NCBI GenBank assembly: GCA_045615645.1
Contig: JAZLFF010000082.1
Span: 45,588-109,587, forward strand
Source of the DNA: Treponema sp.
GTDB lineage: Bacteria; Spirochaetota; Spirochaetia; Treponematales; Treponemataceae
Length of the DNA: 64,000 nucleotides
Direction: 5' to 3'
Shown here: in pieces, positions 15,605 to 39,455 of the stretch
Numbering within the stretch: the stretch's first letter is position 1
Layout of the letters: each line of letters begins with the position of its first letter
Notes under the pieces: generated by a model
The model's input: the letters and a program-made list of their open reading frames with translations, nothing else
Told to the model about the DNA's origin: nothing
Databases searched by the model: none
Program-made: the position numbers and the translations under genes

Positions 15605-15722
15605 GAGGTCCGTCCCCTTTTTCACATTTTTATGAAATTGAGGTCCGTCCCCTTTTTCACATTTTCATGAAAAAGGGGACGGACCTATTTTTCATATTTT
15701 TGTGAAATTAGGGACGGACCTC
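15605..15722. repeat. REP/BIME-like array, family A cluster 1
   Basis: Two GAGGTCCGTCCCC and two inverted GGGACGGACCT motifs at 35-36 bp period, separated by TTTCACATTTTTATGAAA-type cores. Confidence 0.9.
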
Positions 15723-24580: not shown

Positions 24581-24662
24581 GAGGTCGGGGTCTTTTTTCA
24601 TAAAAATGTGAAAAAGGGGACGGACCTGTATTTCATAAAAATGTGAAAAAGGGGACGGACCT
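24581..24662. repeat. REP/BIME-like array, family A cluster 2
   Basis: tttcataaaaatgtgaaaaaggggacggacct twice, plus a degenerate left arm. Confidence 0.9.
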
Positions 24663-30576: not shown

Positions 30577-32825
30577 ATAAAACAACTGAAATGTATTATA
30601 AAAAGTTTTATTTTATTAAGTTTGATTGTTAGTTTATCTAGTTGCGAAATGATTTCTGGCATGTTCAACAAAGATGATGGTGATAGTGGAAAAGATGTTG
30701 ACAGAACAAAGGTTGGCAATACTAAACAATTTTTAAGATTCAGACCAGACGGTGCCAGCGCTCTTGGTGTTGTAGACAAAGAAGAAGATCCATATGCTTC
30801 GGCACGAAATGCTTCAGCACGGAATGCTGCAACAAATGAGTTTATTCTTAAAATTACTGAAGCAGGTTCTATGGAAAGCTTTTTGTCACTTCCAGAGGGA
30901 ACTCAAGGTGAGCTTGCAGATATTCCTATGATTGCCCAATCTCCAGACCCAGAAACAAAATGTTTCTTTGTTATCCTTAATGGATATTCCTGGTTAACTA
31001 CTCCAGTAACAAGAACCGATGAAGATGGAAATGACTGGGAAGAAAATGTACCTTTAAAAATCTGACCTCTTTTGTGTGTATTTGATGATGGTAGTTACAG
31101 CGATATTCTCCCAGACCCTGAAATAGATAATGTAATGAGAGAATAGGTTGCTGAAGGTCCAGAAAACACAATGACATTTGATAAACAAGGAAACTTGTAT
31201 TATGTAATTAATGAAAGAGATTCAAAATCAAATGTTACTGTAATTTATAAGTATGACCCAAATACAAATACTTCTACACAGTTAACTTCAAAAATTGGAG
31301 ATATGTGGTATACCAAACTTCAGGTAAGTGCAGATGGTTCATGTTTTTTTGCAAACGCACAACGTAATGGTGGTGCACACTATGTTCGTGCTATTCCAGT
31401 TAATGACCCAGAAAATTCTATTGACCTTTGGTACGATTCTATAGGTAGTTCTTGTCTAAAAGACTGGGTTTACGATGATGATGCAGAATGTTTCTATTAT
31501 TCAAGCAATGGAGCTGTACACAAAATTCCAAAAGTAAATGGAACTTTCTCTAAAGCAAATGATGTTGTTATGTTTAGTGGTACTGGAATATGGTTTATTG
31601 ATGACAAGGATAATGGTTTATTTAATGCATCAACTGAGTCTATAGACACTTTTACTCTAAATGATAGTTGTAAAAATATGCCTGTCGGAAGAAATCTTAA
31701 GGTATATAAAGAAGATGATAGCACAGGAGAACTTGAGGACACAGGAACCATAGCATATCCAAAAGAAGTAACTTATTTGTTTAGAAATATTACTTCAGAA
31801 GAAAAGGAAATTCAGCCACAGGAGATTTATAATTACATTATAAATAATGCTTTTTCTTCTTTAGAAAAGCCTGAAGAAATTGCATATTTTATTGATAAAG
31901 GTACAGAAGGCGCACCTGATTATGTCTTTAAACCTGGTTTGGATGAAAAATATTATTTAAACTTTAAGAAATTTGAAAACGACAAGGTTTTTGGAAAAAT
32001 TGCTGAAATTACAAAAGACAAAAAAGATGTAGAAGCTATAAAGGCCATTTTTGACAATAATCTTGAAAACTTGTTTGGTTCTTTGATATATTCTGAAGGA
32101 AATAATTCTATTTACAAGAATGCTGGTTAATCAAGTGTCGAATGGTATGAAAGAAACTTTTATGCAGATGTTCTTTACAGTATAGGCACAGATAAGTCTA
32201 TTGAAGAAGATTTATTTATCCATTCAGATATAAAAACAGACTGTTTTGCAACTTCTGGTTTTAGTGGACTGGGATATATTAATCTGTATACAAAAAATTC
32301 GGGAATTGTATATACCTGGAAGGATGCTTACAAGAATGGCGATTCTTTAGATGCAAAAAAAGTTCTTGAAAAGCTTTCTTCTTTATGTAGACAGGATGAA
32401 ATTGACTTTAAATTAACAGCATTCAAAGGTTTAAAACATAACTATTATGATTTTAATCCTTTATATACAGAAAAGACAAAGGTGAACGTATCACTTTGGA
32501 AGGTTCACCAAAATTACATATTTTAAGCACTGTAAGTGCAGACAACGGTGTATACTTCCTTAATGGCATTGATGATGGACGAGGTGGCGAATCTGGTAAA
32601 CACAACATTTTGTTCTACGATGTAAAAGAGGATGAACTAAGAAACCTTTTTGAAAACGTTGGTAACGACCTTGAAGTTTTCTCTTTCTCTGGTAGAAAAA
32701 ATGCTTTGTACTTCAGTGCAGCAAAAGGATTTAACAGTATCAATGGAAAAATTGATACTCAAACCGGAAACTATGAAGTGTTAAGTTCAGGTCAAAAGCT
32801 TAGCCAGATTATTGTTGTAGAATAA
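30577..32825 (+). pseudogene. Disrupted large lipoprotein gene
   Basis: AGGAG RBS then ATA in place of ATG; lipobox LSSC; in-frame TGA 31063, TAG 31144, TAA 32128; frame switch near 32480. Confidence 0.8.
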
Positions 32826-32839
32826 CATAATTTAGCTTT

Positions 32840-33592
32840 TTAAAATTCTAAAGTTCCGATTACTGTTGTATCATCATCATCAGAATCGGAACTTTTTTTA
32901 ATTTTTTTACTTTTCTTAAAACGAGGACTTTCGGCATCAATTTCCGCAATACGTTCAGCCTTATTTAATAATCCGCCCTCTGAAGTTCCAGAAGATTTTC
33001 TAGCAGCTTTAGCTTTCGGAGAAGCAAGAAACGCAAACAAACTTCCACAAAGTCCACCAGCAATTCCAATAAAAATTCCAACTACCCCATTAGGATTTTT
33101 CACAAAAATCTCGCGCACAATAAACAAAATAAAAACAAGTACAAAACTGCTAGGTATTTTCTTTTTAGAAAACGACAAAAACGAATTCAAAAAAATCATC
33201 ATAAAGACAATTGGAGTACAACCAACAATACTGTTTTTACAAAAGCAAGCATTCAAAACACCGGAAAACAGCGCCGACACCAGCATCATCAATCCGATAA
33301 TAACAGAACCGTACCTTTCTTCCATAGACGGCCCCAAAAGTAAAATAAAAATCAAATTAGTAATTAATACTTCCCAAGAAACCGCACTAAACGAATACAT
33401 TACTAACCGCACATAAGACAAAACCTTATTCGGCACAAACAGAAAATCTCCACCAGCCGCAGGAGAACTCATAAACAAAGCGGTCCACTTACCTTTAACA
33501 ACGAACGAATCGAGTACAAATAATAAAATGGAAATCATTGAAAAAGTAACTGTAACCGGAGCATCAATATCAATATTAATCTTCTTTTTCAT
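32840..33592 (-). CDS. Rhomboid-fold membrane protein lacking catalytic Ser/His
   Basis: NLIFILLLGPSMEERYG rhomboid pattern; GCTP in place of GASG; TM6 has no His; TGATG overlap with upstream gene. Confidence 0.75.
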   Translation of the reverse strand: MKKKINIDIDAPVTVTFSMISILLFVLDSFVVKGKWTALFMSSPAAGGDFLFVPNKVLSYVRLVMYSFSAVSWEVLITNLIFILLLGPSMEERYGSVIIGLMMLVSALFSGVLNACFCKNSIVGCTPIVFMMIFLNSFLSFSKKKIPSSFVLVFILFIVREIFVKNPNGVVGIFIGIAGGLCGSLFAFLASPKAKAARKSSGTSEGGLLNKAERIAEIDAESPRFKKSKKIKKSSDSDDDDTTVIGTLEF

Positions 33593-34113
33593 CACACACC
33601 AATCTCTATTTCATTACAAAGAGCTTCATACAAAATAGCTTTATCTTTGTTTGCATCACGTACAGTTTTTGTAAGACGTTTTGCAAGAACGAGTAAAGCT
33701 CTGTATCCCAAAACTGGTTCTTTCTCGCACAATTCCAGAAAAGTTTTTCCCGAAAGAGCAAGCGCAGAACATTCCGTTTTTGCAGTAACAGTTGCAGAAC
33801 GAGTATCATTACTAATAATTGCCATTTCACCAAAGAAAACGTTCATTTCGGAATTAAGCGTTGCAAGAGCAATTACATCACCCGCCGGCGTCTGTCGTGT
33901 AATTAAAACCTCACCAGAATACAAAATGTAAAAAACATCTCCAGTTTCGCCTTCTTTAATAATTGCTTCTCCAGCCTTAAATTTTTCAACAGAAAGACAA
34001 TTATACACTGTTTTCAAAATGCGCTTATCTTCTTCTCCTTCAGGATTAAAAGCTTCAAAAATCGGAATCTTAACTAATTTTGGTAAAACCTGTTCAAATG
34101 TATCCATTATCAT
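33592..34113 (-). CDS. Stand-alone cyclic-nucleotide-binding domain protein
   Basis: IIKEGETGDVFYILYSGEV and FFGEMAI...RSATVTA phosphate-binding cassette; no HTH; start may be 34107. Confidence 0.9.
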   Translation of the reverse strand: MIMDTFEQVLPKLVKIPIFEAFNPEGEEDKRILKTVYNCLSVEKFKAGEAIIKEGETGDVFYILYSGEVLITRQTPAGDVIALATLNSEMNVFFGEMAIISNDTRSATVTAKTECSALALSGKTFLELCEKEPVLGYRALLVLAKRLTKTVRDANKDKAILYEALCNEIEIGV

Positions 34114-34121
34114 CCTCCGGA

Positions 34122-35324
34122 TTATGCCTTTATCTGCTTACCACGAACATAAATTGCTTTAGAGTTCTTAGGAACAATAAAATCGTTTGGCGGCGTAAAC
34201 ATTGGTTCGTTACTAATCATCGTTTTTACCTTTTGAAGTCCGCCAATAATATCGTTCATATTCGGATTTTTCTGTGCCTCGCGGATAGCTTCCTTCCTAC
34301 GCAAGTGAAAATTTCCTGAATTAAGTAAAAGGCCTACAAGAATACCGTTCTGTTTTCGGATATTCCAGAAATGATCTTTCAATTCCTTATAACTTTTACC
34401 AATAAATTCATCAGGGATTTCACCAATCAAAATGCCAGAATCAGCTTCATCACTGATTAACGACCTAATAACGTTACTATAGCCCATTCCGCTGGAAGCT
34501 GTTGCTAAAAGACTTCGTTCGTATTCCTGCGTCAAAATTATTTCATCGCAGTGTGCCATTTTTAAATGCTTTTCAAACTTTTCGCTGATTAATTCCGCAG
34601 CAACGTAAATACCACGATTCATGCTTTCCATTGTAAGAACGGCAAGGACAGTTCGTGAATCAATTTCGAGATTTGAATATTTCTTAGACTTATCAGAAAT
34701 AATTAAAGCACGTGAAGCTGTTTTTATAAACGCACGGTTTAATGTAGTTTCGTCAGTAAAATCACCGGCAACAAAGTTTAAATCCTTATACTTTTTCTGA
34801 GCTCTTAACTGTTCCATTTGCTCAGGTGCTTCATTAATTAAAACAATCATATCTGTAGATATATCCGGATTAGATATAAGTACATTTTCCAAAATATTTT
34901 CAAAGCCCGGTCTCCAACCGCAAAGTAAAAAATGTCCCTGCATAGTATTCAACTTCTTTAACCCCTTATCATTTTTCATTTGAACATCAACAAACCAAGA
35001 TGCAATTTTCGCTGTAATACAACTAAAAAGCACCAACCCCGTCATAAGCATTGTCCATCCAGCAATTCGTCCAGGAAGAGATTCGCAGACAAACTCAAAA
35101 TAGTTTGCAAAAACGGCAACGCACATAAACCAGAACGTATCGAACTTAGTAACAATTCCACTTCCAGTTTTTGTTTCTGCGTTATAAACAACAATACACG
35201 CAATAAAAATCAGGACAACAATTCCAAGGCACAAAAGTACAAGCGGATCGCTTAAAGTAAGCCGAAGCCGTTTGAAAATCGAAACCTTCTTTCTGTCCTT
35301 TTTATCATTTTTTTTCGTTTCCAT
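34122..35324 (-). CDS. 2TM channel-like protein with RCK/TrkA domain, non-canonical filter (subunit B)
   Basis: TM1-pore helix-TM2 (DTFW...PGR), HFLLCGW, GDFTDETTL RCK; FANYFE at the filter position. Confidence 0.85.
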   Translation of the reverse strand: METKKNDKKDRKKVSIFKRLRLTLSDPLVLLCLGIVVLIFIACIVVYNAETKTGSGIVTKFDTFWFMCVAVFANYFEFVCESLPGRIAGWTMLMTGLVLFSCITAKIASWFVDVQMKNDKGLKKLNTMQGHFLLCGWRPGFENILENVLISNPDISTDMIVLINEAPEQMEQLRAQKKYKDLNFVAGDFTDETTLNRAFIKTASRALIISDKSKKYSNLEIDSRTVLAVLTMESMNRGIYVAAELISEKFEKHLKMAHCDEIILTQEYERSLLATASSGMGYSNVIRSLISDEADSGILIGEIPDEFIGKSYKELKDHFWNIRKQNGILVGLLLNSGNFHLRRKEAIREAQKNPNMNDIIGGLQKVKTMISNEPMFTPPNDFIVPKNSKAIYVRGKQIKA

Positions 35325-35346
35325 GATAAACCAGCTCTAAACCTCA

Positions 35347-36438
35347 TTAGTGATTTGCACAAATCAAAATAGATTTAGCATTTTTTGGAATTATAAAATC
35401 ATCAGACGGAGTTAATAATGTCTCATGATTTTCATCCAGCAGTAAACCGACCAAAACTTCATCTTTTTCTGTAAAGAAACGGTCTAATAAAGTTTTGTAA
35501 GATTTTCCAATATAAGCCATAGGAATTTCATCAATAATAATACCAGATTCTGCATCATCAGAAATAAGTGACTTAATTACGTTGCTATAGCCTTTTCCAC
35601 TTGAAGCAGTTGCTAAAAGACTGTGTTCATATTCCTGGGTAAGCAAAACTTCATCACAATGTGCAAGTTGCAAATGTTCTTCAAACTTTTTATCTATAAT
35701 TTCTGCCGCAACATATACATCCGGATTTATATTCTTCATTGTAAGGACAGCCAGAACAGTCTGCGAATCAGTTTCCATTTCTGAACGAGTTTTTGACGCA
35801 TCCGAAATAACGAGAACACGTTTTGCTTTTTCTATGAATGCTCGCTTTAATGTTTCTGCATCAGCAAAATCACCGGCTACATAATTTATATCCTTAAACT
35901 GAAGCTCAGAACGAAGCTGTTCCATTTGCTCGGCAGGAGCTTCATTTACCATTACAATTTGATCTGTAGAAATATCAGGATTAGACTGCATAACAGCTTC
36001 CAGAATCTTATCAAAACCTGTTCTCCATCCGCAAATAATAAAATGATCTTTCATACCTCTTAGTTTTTTTAACCCCTTATTTCCTTTCATTAACATATTC
36101 ATGAATCCAGAAGTGACTCTACCAGTTACAAAACTGAATATAATCATTCCAAAAAGCAGTAACACAAGTGATGCAAATCGTCCTGGAATGGATTTTACGT
36201 AATAGTCAAAATATGCAGCGGAAACTGCAACAATTGTATGCCAGACTGTATCAAACCATCCGACAATTCCACTATCAGTTCTACCACCAGATTCTGTTTC
36301 GTGAACTACATAAGTTGCCACCGTAATTGCAATAACAACGACTATTCCAACGTATGTAAATGGATTTGAAAAAAGCCTTTTTAGCTTTCGATGATATCTA
36401 CTTACTTTCTCATTTTCCGATTTTACTTTCTTAGTCAT
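35347..36438 (-). CDS. 2TM channel-like protein with RCK/TrkA domain, non-canonical filter (subunit A)
   Basis: DTVW...PGR pore region, HFIICGW, GDFADAETL RCK; SAAYFD at the filter position; paralogue of the neighbouring gene. Confidence 0.85.
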   Translation of the reverse strand: MTKKVKSENEKVSRYHRKLKRLFSNPFTYVGIVVVIAITVATYVVHETESGGRTDSGIVGWFDTVWHTIVAVSAAYFDYYVKSIPGRFASLVLLLFGMIIFSFVTGRVTSGFMNMLMKGNKGLKKLRGMKDHFIICGWRTGFDKILEAVMQSNPDISTDQIVMVNEAPAEQMEQLRSELQFKDINYVAGDFADAETLKRAFIEKAKRVLVISDASKTRSEMETDSQTVLAVLTMKNINPDVYVAAEIIDKKFEEHLQLAHCDEVLLTQEYEHSLLATASSGKGYSNVIKSLISDDAESGIIIDEIPMAYIGKSYKTLLDRFFTEKDEVLVGLLLDENHETLLTPSDDFIIPKNAKSILICANH

Positions 36439-36499
36439 ATATAAAATTATATCATAAAGTTAGTAGAGTTTATAGAGAAAATATACGCAACATGAAATA

Positions 36500-36583
36500 G
36501 AGGTCCGTCCCCTTTTTCACATTTTTATGAAATTGGGGACGGTTCTCTGTTTCACAAAAATATGAAATTGGGGACGGACCTCT
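36500..36583. repeat. REP/BIME-like array, family A cluster 3
   Basis: gaggtccgtcccc...ggggacggttct...ggggacggacctc. Confidence 0.9.
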
Positions 36584-36637
36584 GAATAACAAAATAGTTA
36601 AATTCTTGCTATACAAAGAATTAACATTTCAGACTAT

Positions 36638-36722
36638 TAGAGGTCCGTCCCTCTTTTCACATTTTCATGAAAAACAGGTCCGTCCCCTTTTTCACATTTT
36701 CATGAAAAAGGGGACGGACCTC
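36638..36722. repeat. REP/BIME-like array, family A cluster 4
   Basis: gaggtccgtccc...aggtccgtcccc...ggggacggacctc. Confidence 0.9.
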
Positions 36723-36811
36723 CATTTCACTTTCACTATCTCAAAATATGTAAGCATGGGTAAAACAACATTCCACTTTAATCTTTTTATAATAACCTTT
36801 ATAATATAAGT

Positions 36812-37123
36812 ATGAGCGATGTAAATAATCAGTCAGAAAATAACGCAAATCCTTTTGTTGCAGATGCAGGATTTGAACTGCCACCTACAAAAAATGTAGT
36901 GTTTTACAACGATGACTTTACAACTATGGATTTTGTTATTGATGTCCTTGTTTCTATTTTTAATAAATCTCACGAAGAAGCAGAAAAACTTATGAGACAG
37001 GTTCATGAATCAGGTTCTTCTGTAGTTGGTACATACACATACGACATTGCAGTTTCTCGCACAAACCTTACAATTCAAGTTGCTCGAAAAAAAGGTTTTC
37101 CATTGAGGGTAGAAGTTGAGTAA
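36812..37123 (+). CDS. clpS: Clp protease adaptor
   Basis: VVFYNDDFTTMDFV, VHESG, GFPLR. Confidence 0.93.
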   Translation: MSDVNNQSENNANPFVADAGFELPPTKNVVFYNDDFTTMDFVIDVLVSIFNKSHEEAEKLMRQVHESGSSVVGTYTYDIAVSRTNLTIQVARKKGFPLRVEVE

Positions 37124-39455
37124 TCCAGAAAAGCCAAAGCAGATTGTCAAACAAATGAAAATCAGTCCAGAACTCACAAAAATACTGTCAGAATCCCTGC
37201 TCAGTGCAAAACAATCGCACCATCAGTTTTTTACACCAGAACATGTTTTAGCTTCGGCACTTAAAGAAGATTTCGTAACCGATTTGTTAACAAAAAGTGG
37301 TGCTAATTCAAAACATTTGCGCGACGACCTTTACTCTTACCTTACTTCACAAATGCCAGTCATTTCGGAACAGGCAAATCCGGAATTTTATACAGGCCCT
37401 TCAGAGTCTGCAGGCTTCCAGGCAATGATGAACCGTGCCGTTTTCCACTGCGTTTCTGCCGAATCAGACACAATAGACATTACCGACATTCTAATCAGCA
37501 TGGTTGAAGAAAGCAGAAACTACTGTTCATATTTTTTAAAAACTAACGGCGTAGACAAACTAAAACTAATGGAAAATATTTCTCTCACCCGCCCTTCCCG
37601 CAAAAAAAACTCCAACGCTCAGCAATCCCCTGCAAACGGAATAGACACCATGATGGGTTCAAACAATGCCGGCGGACTTAAACGCTTTACCGTAAACATG
37701 ACCGAACAGGCAAAAAAGAATATGTTCGATACACTTGTTGGCCGAGAAGAAGAAATTGAGCGAACAATTCAAGTTTTGTGCCGCCGTTCAAAAAATAATC
37801 CGCTGCATGTTGGCGATGCAGGAGTTGGAAAAACTGCCATTACACAAGGACTTGCACAGCGAATTGTTGCAGGGCAAGTTCCAGACATTCTAAAAGATTA
37901 TACAATTTATTCTCTGGATATTGGACTTTTGCTTGCAGGTTCCAAATTCCGTGGCGATTTTGAGGAAAGACTTCATTCAGTAATCAATGAACTTAAAGAA
38001 AAAAAACGCGCCATTTTGTTTATTGATGAAATTCATATGATTATGGGCGCTGGTACAAACGGAAATTCTCAAATTGATGCAGCAAATCTTTTAAAACCAG
38101 TTCTTGCAAGTGGTGAAGTTCGCTTTATAGGTTCAACCACTTTCGAAGAATATTCTAAAAACTTTGAAAAAGACCGCGCACTTGCAAGACGTTTCCAAAA
38201 AATTGATATTCTCGAACCAACCGTTAGCGAATCCGTAAAAATACTTAAAGGTATTCTGCCAAAATACGAACAGTATCACAATGTACGCTACACTTCCACA
38301 GCAGTAGAAGAGGCCGTTCGACTTTCTGCACAATATCTTCCGGATCGTCGCCTTCCAGACAAAGCAATTGATATAATTGATGAAGCAGGCGCTTACATGC
38401 ACATAGCAAGAACCGGCGGATTTTTAGGAACAGTTGGAGTTGGAGGAAAAAAATCAACTCCATTAGTAACTCCATCCGTTATTAAAACCGTAACAGCAAA
38501 AATTGCAAAACTTCCAATAGACACAGTTGCAGGTTCCGAAAAAACTGCCTTGCGCGAAATTGAAGAAAACCTGCGCTTAGACATTTTTGGTCAGGAAAAA
38601 GCAATTATTACACTTGGAAAAGCAGTAAAACGCGCACGAGCAGGATTTCGAAATCCAGATCGTCCAGAAGCCTGCTATTTATTTGTAGGTCCTACAGGTT
38701 GTGGAAAAACTGAACTTGCAAAAACTCTCGCAAAACTTCTAAAAGAACCGTTACTCCGTTACGATATGAGCGAATATCAGGAAAAACATACAGTTAGCCG
38801 TCTTGTAGGTTCACCTCCAGGTTACGTTGGTTTTGAAGAAGGCGGACAACTTACCAAAGATATTCGAAAAACACCGAATGCCGTAATTTTGTTCGACGAA
38901 ATTGAAAAAGCACACGAAGACATTTACAACGTTTTACTGCAAGTTATGGATTATGGTCAGTTAACTGATAATCAAGGACGAAAAGCGGATTTCCGAAACT
39001 GCATAATCATTATGACAAGTAACGCAGGCGCACGCGATTTGGAAAAACCTGGCATTGGTTTTGGCTCTGAATACGAAGATGATCTTGACGCAGCTCTTTC
39101 TGAAGCCGTAAACCGTGAATTCCCTCCAGAATTCCGCAATCGTTTGGACGCCGTTGTTCCATTTAATTACCTAGATTCTCAAGTTGCAAAAAAAGTTTGC
39201 CGTAAAGAAGTTGCTCGCTTGTCAGAACGTATGAAAGCTAAAAAAGTTGAACTTACTGTTACTGAAAAATGTATCGATTTGCTTACAACTTTAGGGTATT
39301 CAAAAGAATTTGGAGCTCGAAACATTGCGCGTACAGTCGAAGACAAAATTGCCAATCAACTTGTAGATGAAGTTTTATTTGGCAAACTGGAAAAAGGCGG
39401 AAAAGTTACAGCTAATGCTTCAAAAGAGAAGATAACTTTTACATATGGAAAGTAA
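37116..39455 (+). CDS. clpA: ATP-dependent Clp protease ATP-binding subunit
   Basis: Two AAA modules (GDAGVGKT, GPTGCGKT), RRLPDKAID, follows clpS; start could be ATG 37155. Confidence 0.92.
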   Translation: MSNPEKPKQIVKQMKISPELTKILSESLLSAKQSHHQFFTPEHVLASALKEDFVTDLLTKSGANSKHLRDDLYSYLTSQMPVISEQANPEFYTGPSESAGFQAMMNRAVFHCVSAESDTIDITDILISMVEESRNYCSYFLKTNGVDKLKLMENISLTRPSRKKNSNAQQSPANGIDTMMGSNNAGGLKRFTVNMTEQAKKNMFDTLVGREEEIERTIQVLCRRSKNNPLHVGDAGVGKTAITQGLAQRIVAGQVPDILKDYTIYSLDIGLLLAGSKFRGDFEERLHSVINELKEKKRAILFIDEIHMIMGAGTNGNSQIDAANLLKPVLASGEVRFIGSTTFEEYSKNFEKDRALARRFQKIDILEPTVSESVKILKGILPKYEQYHNVRYTSTAVEEAVRLSAQYLPDRRLPDKAIDIIDEAGAYMHIARTGGFLGTVGVGGKKSTPLVTPSVIKTVTAKIAKLPIDTVAGSEKTALREIEENLRLDIFGQEKAIITLGKAVKRARAGFRNPDRPEACYLFVGPTGCGKTELAKTLAKLLKEPLLRYDMSEYQEKHTVSRLVGSPPGYVGFEEGGQLTKDIRKTPNAVILFDEIEKAHEDIYNVLLQVMDYGQLTDNQGRKADFRNCIIIMTSNAGARDLEKPGIGFGSEYEDDLDAALSEAVNREFPPEFRNRLDAVVPFNYLDSQVAKKVCRKEVARLSERMKAKKVELTVTEKCIDLLTTLGYSKEFGARNIARTVEDKIANQLVDEVLFGKLEKGGKVTANASKEKITFTYGK

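Follow-up and report, generated by a model that had tools for sequence, protein, structure and literature searches.

The 64,000-nucleotide (nt) stretch of a gut Treponema sp. analysed here (assembly GCA_045615645.1, contig JAZLFF010000082.1, positions 45,588 to 109,587; called the window below, its genome being G000) carries four co-oriented minus-strand genes at 32840-36438 that probably form a composite locus. Its core, made of chanA, chanB and the gene of a cyclic-nucleotide-binding (CNB) protein, would encode a cation channel of altered selectivity regulated by cyclic nucleotide monophosphates (cNMPs) through a detachable sensor; the fourth gene, rhomboid-like and designated rho for short, would be a passenger. 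This core derives from a widespread pair of genes, the first for an MthK-like channel with two transmembrane helices and an RCK domain (2TM/RCK) and the second for a CNB-only protein of about 170 amino acids (aa). A remodelled filter and tandem channel paralogues are what distinguishes this locus from the canonical split channel/CNB module.

All four open reading frames (ORFs) are uninterrupted. ORF calls and sequence agree with the initial annotation of the stretch on this point and on the tight spacing it described: 22 nt between chanA and chanB, 8 nt between chanB and the CNB gene, and a stop/start overlap between the CNB gene and rho. chanA (35347-36438, minus strand, 363 aa) encodes a channel paralogue with a 2TM pore, an RCK domain and a derived filter, SAAYFD, at 36205-36222. 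The ancestral-type channel of the module is encoded by chanB (34122-35324, minus strand, 400 aa), with the derived filter FANYFE at 35094-35111. The ORF of the stand-alone CNB protein (33592-34113, minus strand, 173 aa) includes a phosphate-binding cassette at 33793-33834; the ATG at 34107, which lies behind GGAGG, is likely to be its true start. rho (32840-33595, minus strand, 251 aa) encodes a rhomboid-like pseudoprotease, the codon of residue T127 being at 33215-33217. Within GTGTGATGA, the stop codon of the CNB gene overlaps the start codon of rho, by 1 nt with an ATG start and by 4 nt with a GTG start.

The association of the channel with the CNB protein was found wherever the module could be followed. 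Sixty relatives were searched with each protein (36 of the same genus and 24 of other families of the order). The channel is present in 32/61 genomes, and a CNB gene lies directly downstream of it in all of the 29 loci fetched in the order, even where the channel is only 25-30% identical (other families). A cross-phylum survey was made by a pattern search from canonical family members, with one genome per GTDB species; the pattern contained TVGYGD, so the 80 loci returned are biased to canonical filters. In 77 of these 80 loci, a CNB ORF of 160-190 aa follows the channel on the same strand, a few bases away or overlapping it, and the three exceptions all stop at a contig edge. About ten phyla are represented, including Spirochaetota, Desulfobacterota (Syntrophales), Calditrichota, Kryptonia, Chloroflexota, Cloacimonadota, Acidobacteriota (Vicinamibacteria), Bacteroidota and Poribacteria. 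Clustering of the flanking ORFs of the 80 loci gave no further conserved neighbour (next cluster: 19/80) and no rhomboid. No PF00027 domain was found in the 120 best channel matches; a search for longer or fused forms of the channel found none either, which is weak evidence. In a genus-wide draw of 200 sampled genomes, a CNB orthologue was found in 108/201 genomes and rho in 183. The tight conservation of the channel-CNB pair makes it reasonable to read it as a cyclic-nucleotide-regulated channel or sensor. No description of such a split channel/CNB module was found in the full-text literature (subscription journals not covered).

The CNB protein is a putative cNMP receptor. It matches Pfam cNMP_binding (PF00027) with an E-value (E) of 3e-21, and its profile matches the CNB domains of PKA/PKG, MloK1 and SthK (E about 1e-20 for MloK1/SthK). 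The cNMP pocket (FGE...RSA) had been annotated as intact, and so it is: in the cassette FGEMAIISNDTRSATV, the residues G95, R105 and A107 are invariant among 52 family members and E96 is found in at least 90% of them. The same 52-sequence alignment includes a conserved C-terminal helix motif and no output domain. Seven class III cyclase domains are encoded in G000 (87 contigs, 89% complete), together with only three CNB proteins, so the small CNB protein is among the few cNMP receptors of the organism; the cyclase domains and CNB proteins were found on contigs C79, C86, C30, C50, C33 and C17, and on C16 and C82. A predicted complex of the cytoplasmic part of chanB (residues 100-400) with the CNB protein scored 0.01, the mark being 0.32, and is evidence neither way.

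Both channel proteins match Slo-like_RCK (PF22614; E 4e-15 and 1.5e-12) and TrkA_N (PF02254; E 3e-10 and 1e-7). The Pfam assignments of all four proteins of the locus exceed the curated cut-offs; the matches in NCBIfam, to Kch, CRP and GlpG, are all weak and below threshold. The AlphaFold2 model of chanB, built with a 52-sequence alignment (predicted local distance difference test, pLDDT: 90), comprises an N-terminal helix, TM1, a pore helix and TM2 (helices at 27-50, 60-73 and 83-119), then an RCK domain with N- and C-lobes. Its top Foldseek matches are all MthK (template modelling score, TM, 0.73-0.75 by target). MthK is also the best match of chanB when the PDB is searched with phmmer (E 3e-7), KcsA being found too. 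The resemblance to MthK thus extends from sequence to fold, with the same succession of N-terminal helix, TM1, pore helix, TM2 and single two-lobed RCK domain, and with a channel motif, HF(L/I)(L/I)CGW, resembling HVVICGW of MthK. The differences from MthK are a substituted K+ signature, an additional hairpin of 34 aa in the C-lobe of chanB and a separate CNB protein, always encoded downstream. Around the Ca2+ triad of MthK (D184, E210, E212), the pairwise alignment is ambiguous, an 8-residue insertion being present. The internal Met that serves in MthK as the start of the soluble RCK partner is not conserved in canonical family members.

The K+ signature T-[VI]-G-[YF]-G is absent from both paralogues, as had been annotated: where relatives read TVGYGD, chanA reads SAAYFD and chanB FANYFE, one residue shorter in the alignment. 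The K+ pore model of Pfam, Ion_trans_2, has no match anywhere in the G000 genome, which does encode one TrkH-type K+ transporter. T-[TAS]-V-G-Y-G-D is what the pore alignment gives for the distant members, for the channels of G013 and G011 and for the second copy of G026. The remaining members from the genus read A-[G/N/A]-Y-[F/Y]-[D/E], except for the first copy of G026, where the degeneration goes further (T-GVVRF). Compared with the canonical filter, the degenerate one has lost one residue and has an aromatic residue (F/Y) in place of the second glycine. The pattern A[GNA]YF[ED][FY] is found in 119/120 of the nearest 90%-identity clusters, the leftover cluster being an N-terminal truncation. 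When the tree is rooted with the other families, the degenerate-filter channels form a single clade, sister to the canonical TVGYGD channels of the same genus. Judging from this tree, the K+ signature was remodelled once, in one Treponema clade. Given the one-residue deletion and the aromatic residue in place of the second glycine, the channel product is probably no longer K+-selective. The pore helix, the post-filter acidic residue, the PGR motif and the inner-helix glycine remain conserved in the family, and a non-selective or divalent-permeable cation channel appears more likely than a dead pore.

The tandem A/B pair belongs to a sub-clade of the degenerate-filter channels. The B type is the channel of single-channel genomes, and A and B are sister sub-clades in the tree. 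A was always found with an adjacent B (G000, G009, G010, G021, G014, L173, L175 and L176; L173, L175 and L176-L178 are the closest relatives by channel sequence and come from metagenome assemblies). chanA lacks the 34-aa stretch of the C-lobe (chanB 337-370) that is otherwise family-wide and that forms two helices, a hairpin, in the chanB model. The constant pairing of A and B fits a heteromer, and the two probably co-assemble. Another type of duplication was found in eight other genomes of the genus, in which the whole module is repeated in tandem (channel-CNB-channel-CNB): G026:C153 (L079), G198:C64, G137:C4, G109:C49, G099:C102, G117:C7, G092:C135 and G196:C91. The two copies of G026, one with TSVGYGD and one with a degenerate filter, are a natural pair for comparison.

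In the mechanism proposed, the CNB protein would be a detachable sensor subunit that docks on the cytoplasmic RCK assembly of the channel and couples pore gating to the cAMP or cGMP that the seven class III cyclase domains produce. The rebuilt filter would alter selectivity and would not abolish conduction. A later tandem duplication would have given A and B, probably co-assembling, A being then devoid of the family-typical hairpin. A more specific version can be drawn: an obligate A/B heterotetramer conducting cations other than K+, or besides it, via a shortened glycine-poor filter, and gated by cAMP/cGMP through a CNB protein that docks only on the hairpin-bearing B. This version is tentative and, taken in all its details, rather unlikely.

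Other channels share parts of this organization. MloK1, SthK and LliK also combine a K+-channel-type pore with a CNB domain whose phosphate-binding cassette is intact; in them a C-linker joins the CNB domain covalently to a 6TM channel, whereas here a 2TM/RCK channel and a CNB-only polypeptide are encoded separately in every locus. CASTOR/POLLUX/DMI1 and NaK have a K+-channel pore fold and a filter departing from TVGYG, and CASTOR/POLLUX also have RCK domains; their filters are unrelated in sequence to those found here, and the likeness is a functional analogy. chanA gave a weak match to Pfam Castor_Poll_mid (E 0.03, below the cut-off).

The fourth protein matches Pfam Rhomboid (PF01694) with E 1.2e-9, above the cut-off, and lacks the catalytic dyad, as had been annotated. 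When it is aligned with GlpG, N154 (oxyanion site) is kept, H150 and H254 are lost and S201 is replaced by T127, in GCTP; the protein contains no histidine at all. Its best PDB match is the S201T mutant of GlpG. The motifs HxxxN, GASG and AH[IV]AGG have been lost in the nine nearest relatives and in three others, and are kept by more distant orthologues, some of them at the same clpS-linked locus. By its motifs and those of its orthologues, rho encodes a true pseudoprotease of bacteria, descended from an active enzyme inside the genus. Like iRhom and Derlin, it is a rhomboid domain devoid of the Ser-His dyad and yet under selection; unlike them, it is bacterial, small (251 aa), without the iRhom homology domain, and derived from active orthologues within one genus beside clpS-clpA. 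A review treats pseudoproteases almost entirely as eukaryotic (PMC12615303), and no description of bacterial rhomboid pseudoproteases of this kind was found in the full-text literature (subscription journals not covered).

The distribution of rho is not that of the module. rho is present in 56/61 genomes, and no CNB or channel gene was found within 1.5 kb of it in the 29 rho loci fetched. It is back-to-back with clpS-clpA in seven relatives for which larger flanks were taken, in all nine nearest relatives when short loci are included, and also in some relatives with an active rhomboid. Conversely, no rhomboid-like ORF was found in the DNA fetched on each side of the module (1.5-10 kb) in about 110 loci. 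In about 85 genomes of the genus where both CNB and rho were located, the two are never near each other; in G153 and G223 they are on one large contig, 1.4 and 1.7 Mb apart. The initial annotation had suggested that the pseudo-rhomboid could be an accessory subunit of the channel, and had named a lack of linkage in relatives as a result that would refute this; the rhomboid-like gene is indeed unlinked in relatives, and the suggestion is not supported. A co-evolution of the pseudo-rhomboid with the degenerate filter was also considered and rejected, because the two traits occur separately: the pseudo-rhomboid is found without any channel in G005, G018, G007 and G001 and with a canonical-filter channel in G011, and an active rhomboid with a degenerate-filter channel in G036. 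Given its clpS-clpA neighbourhood, rho may have a role in membrane-protein quality control.

Comparison of the closest loci suggests how the module came to lie beside rho. In relatives with a clpS-linked rho, the module lies elsewhere, on different contigs and with different neighbours; in four of these relatives it adjoins genes whose G000 orthologues are on C17, where G000 has no module. L173 has the same order as the window, clpA-clpS and then the divergent chanA-chanB-CNB-rho, with a gap of 36 nt and a strong ribosome-binding site between CNB and rho. In L175 (GCA_024402615.1), clpS is followed by the divergent chanA-chanB-CNB and by a convergent 2-hydroxyacid dehydrogenase gene, with no rho behind; its homology with L173 (80% in nt) ends exactly at the CNB stop. 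In L176-L178, chanA-chanB-CNB is between a gene encoding an Asp-Al_Ex transporter and a gene encoding a HerA-like ATPase. The order clpS-module-rho is common to the window and L173 only, and the adjacency of the module and rho is not kept even within the insertion lineage. The simplest history would be an insertion of the module into the ancestral clpS-rho spacer in one lineage, rho being an accidental downstream neighbour; as the module landed in this spacer, rho would now be read behind it.

The genes of the locus show no decay. Nei-Gojobori estimates of the ratio of nonsynonymous to synonymous substitutions (dN/dS) against L173 and L175 are 0.08 for chanB (the lowest of the locus), 0.10-0.11 for CNB, 0.15-0.20 for chanA and 0.19 for rho, compared with 0.14 for clpA and 0.23-0.25 for clpS used as controls; these figures are rough, since dS is near saturation (about 0.9-2). 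The four genes are thus under purifying selection, like clpA and clpS; relaxed selection on the channel genes, named in the initial annotation as a result that would speak against its proposal, is not what these figures show.

The extended -10 motif annotated ahead of the locus, TGATATAAT, is present (36446-36454, minus strand, 7 nt ahead of the chanA ATG; consensus match only). L173 carries TGGTATAAT at the same distance, 7 nt, from its chanA ATG (L173:4880-4899). A generic promoter scan of the region gave 11 sites for 14.2 expected, which is not above chance. No Shine-Dalgarno sequence is visible before chanA, and the -10/ATG geometry common to the window and L173 suggests a leaderless-type start of the chanA mRNA. 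The terminator-like matches found upstream of chanA are palindromes resembling repetitive extragenic palindromic (REP) elements. Arms of this REP-like repeat, with the core GGGACGGACC, occupy the chanA-clpS spacer at 36498-36729. The core is found in 109 copies in the genome, with arms like AGGTCCGTCCCCTTTTTCA; repeats of this family also lie at 15607-15711 and 24617-24652 of the window. The spacer is 373 nt long with five repeat arms here, and 77 nt long without repeats in L173.

Several points weigh against the composite reading given at the outset. The strict synteny of channel and CNB could reflect co-regulation alone, and the remodelled filter could mean a non-conducting protein; the saturation of dS affects the selection argument. 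A lineage-specific functional tie between the module and rho is possible, given the CNB/rho overlap and the four-gene order of L173. In one RNA-library run (X3), contigs were found on parts of all four genes, the longest (32876-33619) covering rho and 24 nt of the 3′ end of CNB; it is deeper than the contigs on the upstream genes and has adapter-like loose ends. This contig does not bridge the CNB-rho junction, and transcripts, starts or levels cannot be deduced from contigs, so that the run speaks neither for nor against co-transcription; the depth of the contig may hint that rho has its own start.

Among the rival explanations, one takes the A and B proteins for non-conducting pseudo-channels that act as membrane-anchored RCK/CNB signalling scaffolds or sensors. 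Both glycines that give the K+ filter its backbone geometry are affected, one residue being deleted and the second glycine being F/Y, and Ion_trans_2 no longer recognises the pore. However, the pore helix, the inner-helix glycine, the post-filter acidic residue and the whole transmembrane domain are strongly conserved, chanB has the lowest dN/dS of the locus, and channels with non-K+ filters that still conduct exist (CASTOR/POLLUX and NaK), all of which make a dead pore unlikely. It is a little harder still to regard the CNB protein as a soluble cNMP receptor that acts on other targets and has only the operon in common with the channel. In favour of this explanation, no fused channel-CNB protein was found among the 120 best matches or the longer proteins, and the chanB-CNB complex prediction gave no verdict (score 0.01, mark 0.32). 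Yet a pair kept in the same order over about ten phyla, with gaps of a few bases or overlaps and no third partner, is a classic signature of interacting products, and besides its CNB domain the sensor protein has just the conserved C-terminal helix motif and no output domain.

The larger assembly put forward in the initial annotation, in which all four products form one membrane signalling complex, a heteromeric cNMP-regulated channel with the rhomboid pseudoprotease as its scaffold or accessory subunit, is now improbable as a whole. The part of it that concerns a channel/CNB unit and an A/B heteromer fits the data, and only the rhomboid falls away. In favour of the four-product complex, the CNB stop overlaps the rho start in this genome, the same order is found in L173 (36-nt gap, strong ribosome-binding site), rho is under purifying selection, and eukaryotic pseudo-rhomboids do serve as scaffolds (PMC12615303). 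Against this stand the absence of rho from the DNA fetched around the module (1.5-10 kb on each side) in about 110 loci, its location away from the module in about 85 other genomes of the genus, its ancestral and still usual partnership with clpS-clpA, the L175 module beside clpS without rho behind it, and the separate occurrence of pseudo-rhomboid and degenerate filter (G005, G018, G007, G001, G011 and G036). A Pycsar- or CBASS-like anti-phage module, with a cyclic-nucleotide-activated effector collapsing the membrane potential, is scarcely credible. The CNB protein does match the CNB part of the PADLOC models of PycTIR and effectors (E 3e-13), but this match concerns the generic CNB domain only, at a level similar to the CRP match. 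The channels match no defence model of PADLOC. No adjacent cyclase gene was found in any surveyed locus, the channel being the only conserved neighbour, and the module, present in 108/201 sampled genomes of the genus and under purifying selection, is not scattered in defence islands. As the similarity to Pycsar effectors is limited to the generic CNB domain, the defence reading was rejected.

Beyond the four genes, clpS-clpA (36812-39455, plus strand) are the ancestral divergent neighbours of rho. On the other side of the locus, three successive plus-strand ORFs in different frames (147, 319 and 109 aa) occupy 30622-32825, convergent to rho; they could be fragments of one larger gene, frameshifted or affected by an assembly error. 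Runs labelled gut metagenome contain near-identical pieces of the window, and close homologues of its proteins come from metagenome-assembled genomes named Treponema sp.

Two results stand beside the channel itself. A bacterial rhomboid pseudoprotease derived from active orthologues inside one genus, and the operon-like tight spacing of genes in a single genome can be an accident of insertion. As to the channel-CNB core, which remains the probable functional unit of the locus, its significance lies in how the sensor is attached. To our knowledge, all characterised cyclic-nucleotide-gated channels carry their sensor as a fused domain. RCK channels sense ions or nucleotides via the RCK ring itself. 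A 2TM/RCK channel working with a separate CNB-only protein may be a third design by which cyclic nucleotides regulate a channel; that the two are invariably encoded together, over about ten phyla, suggests that the sensor subunit is detachable. In the Treponema clade, this arrangement has been perturbed naturally: a rewrite of the K+ filter that occurred only once and was long kept, and then a tandem pair of paralogues. The filter rewrite and the A/B pair make the new selectivity and the identity of the sensor-binding subunit directly testable questions. An A/B heterotetramer with a trans-acting CNB sensor, if true, would be a new class of channel and a natural experiment in the rebuilding of a K+ filter.

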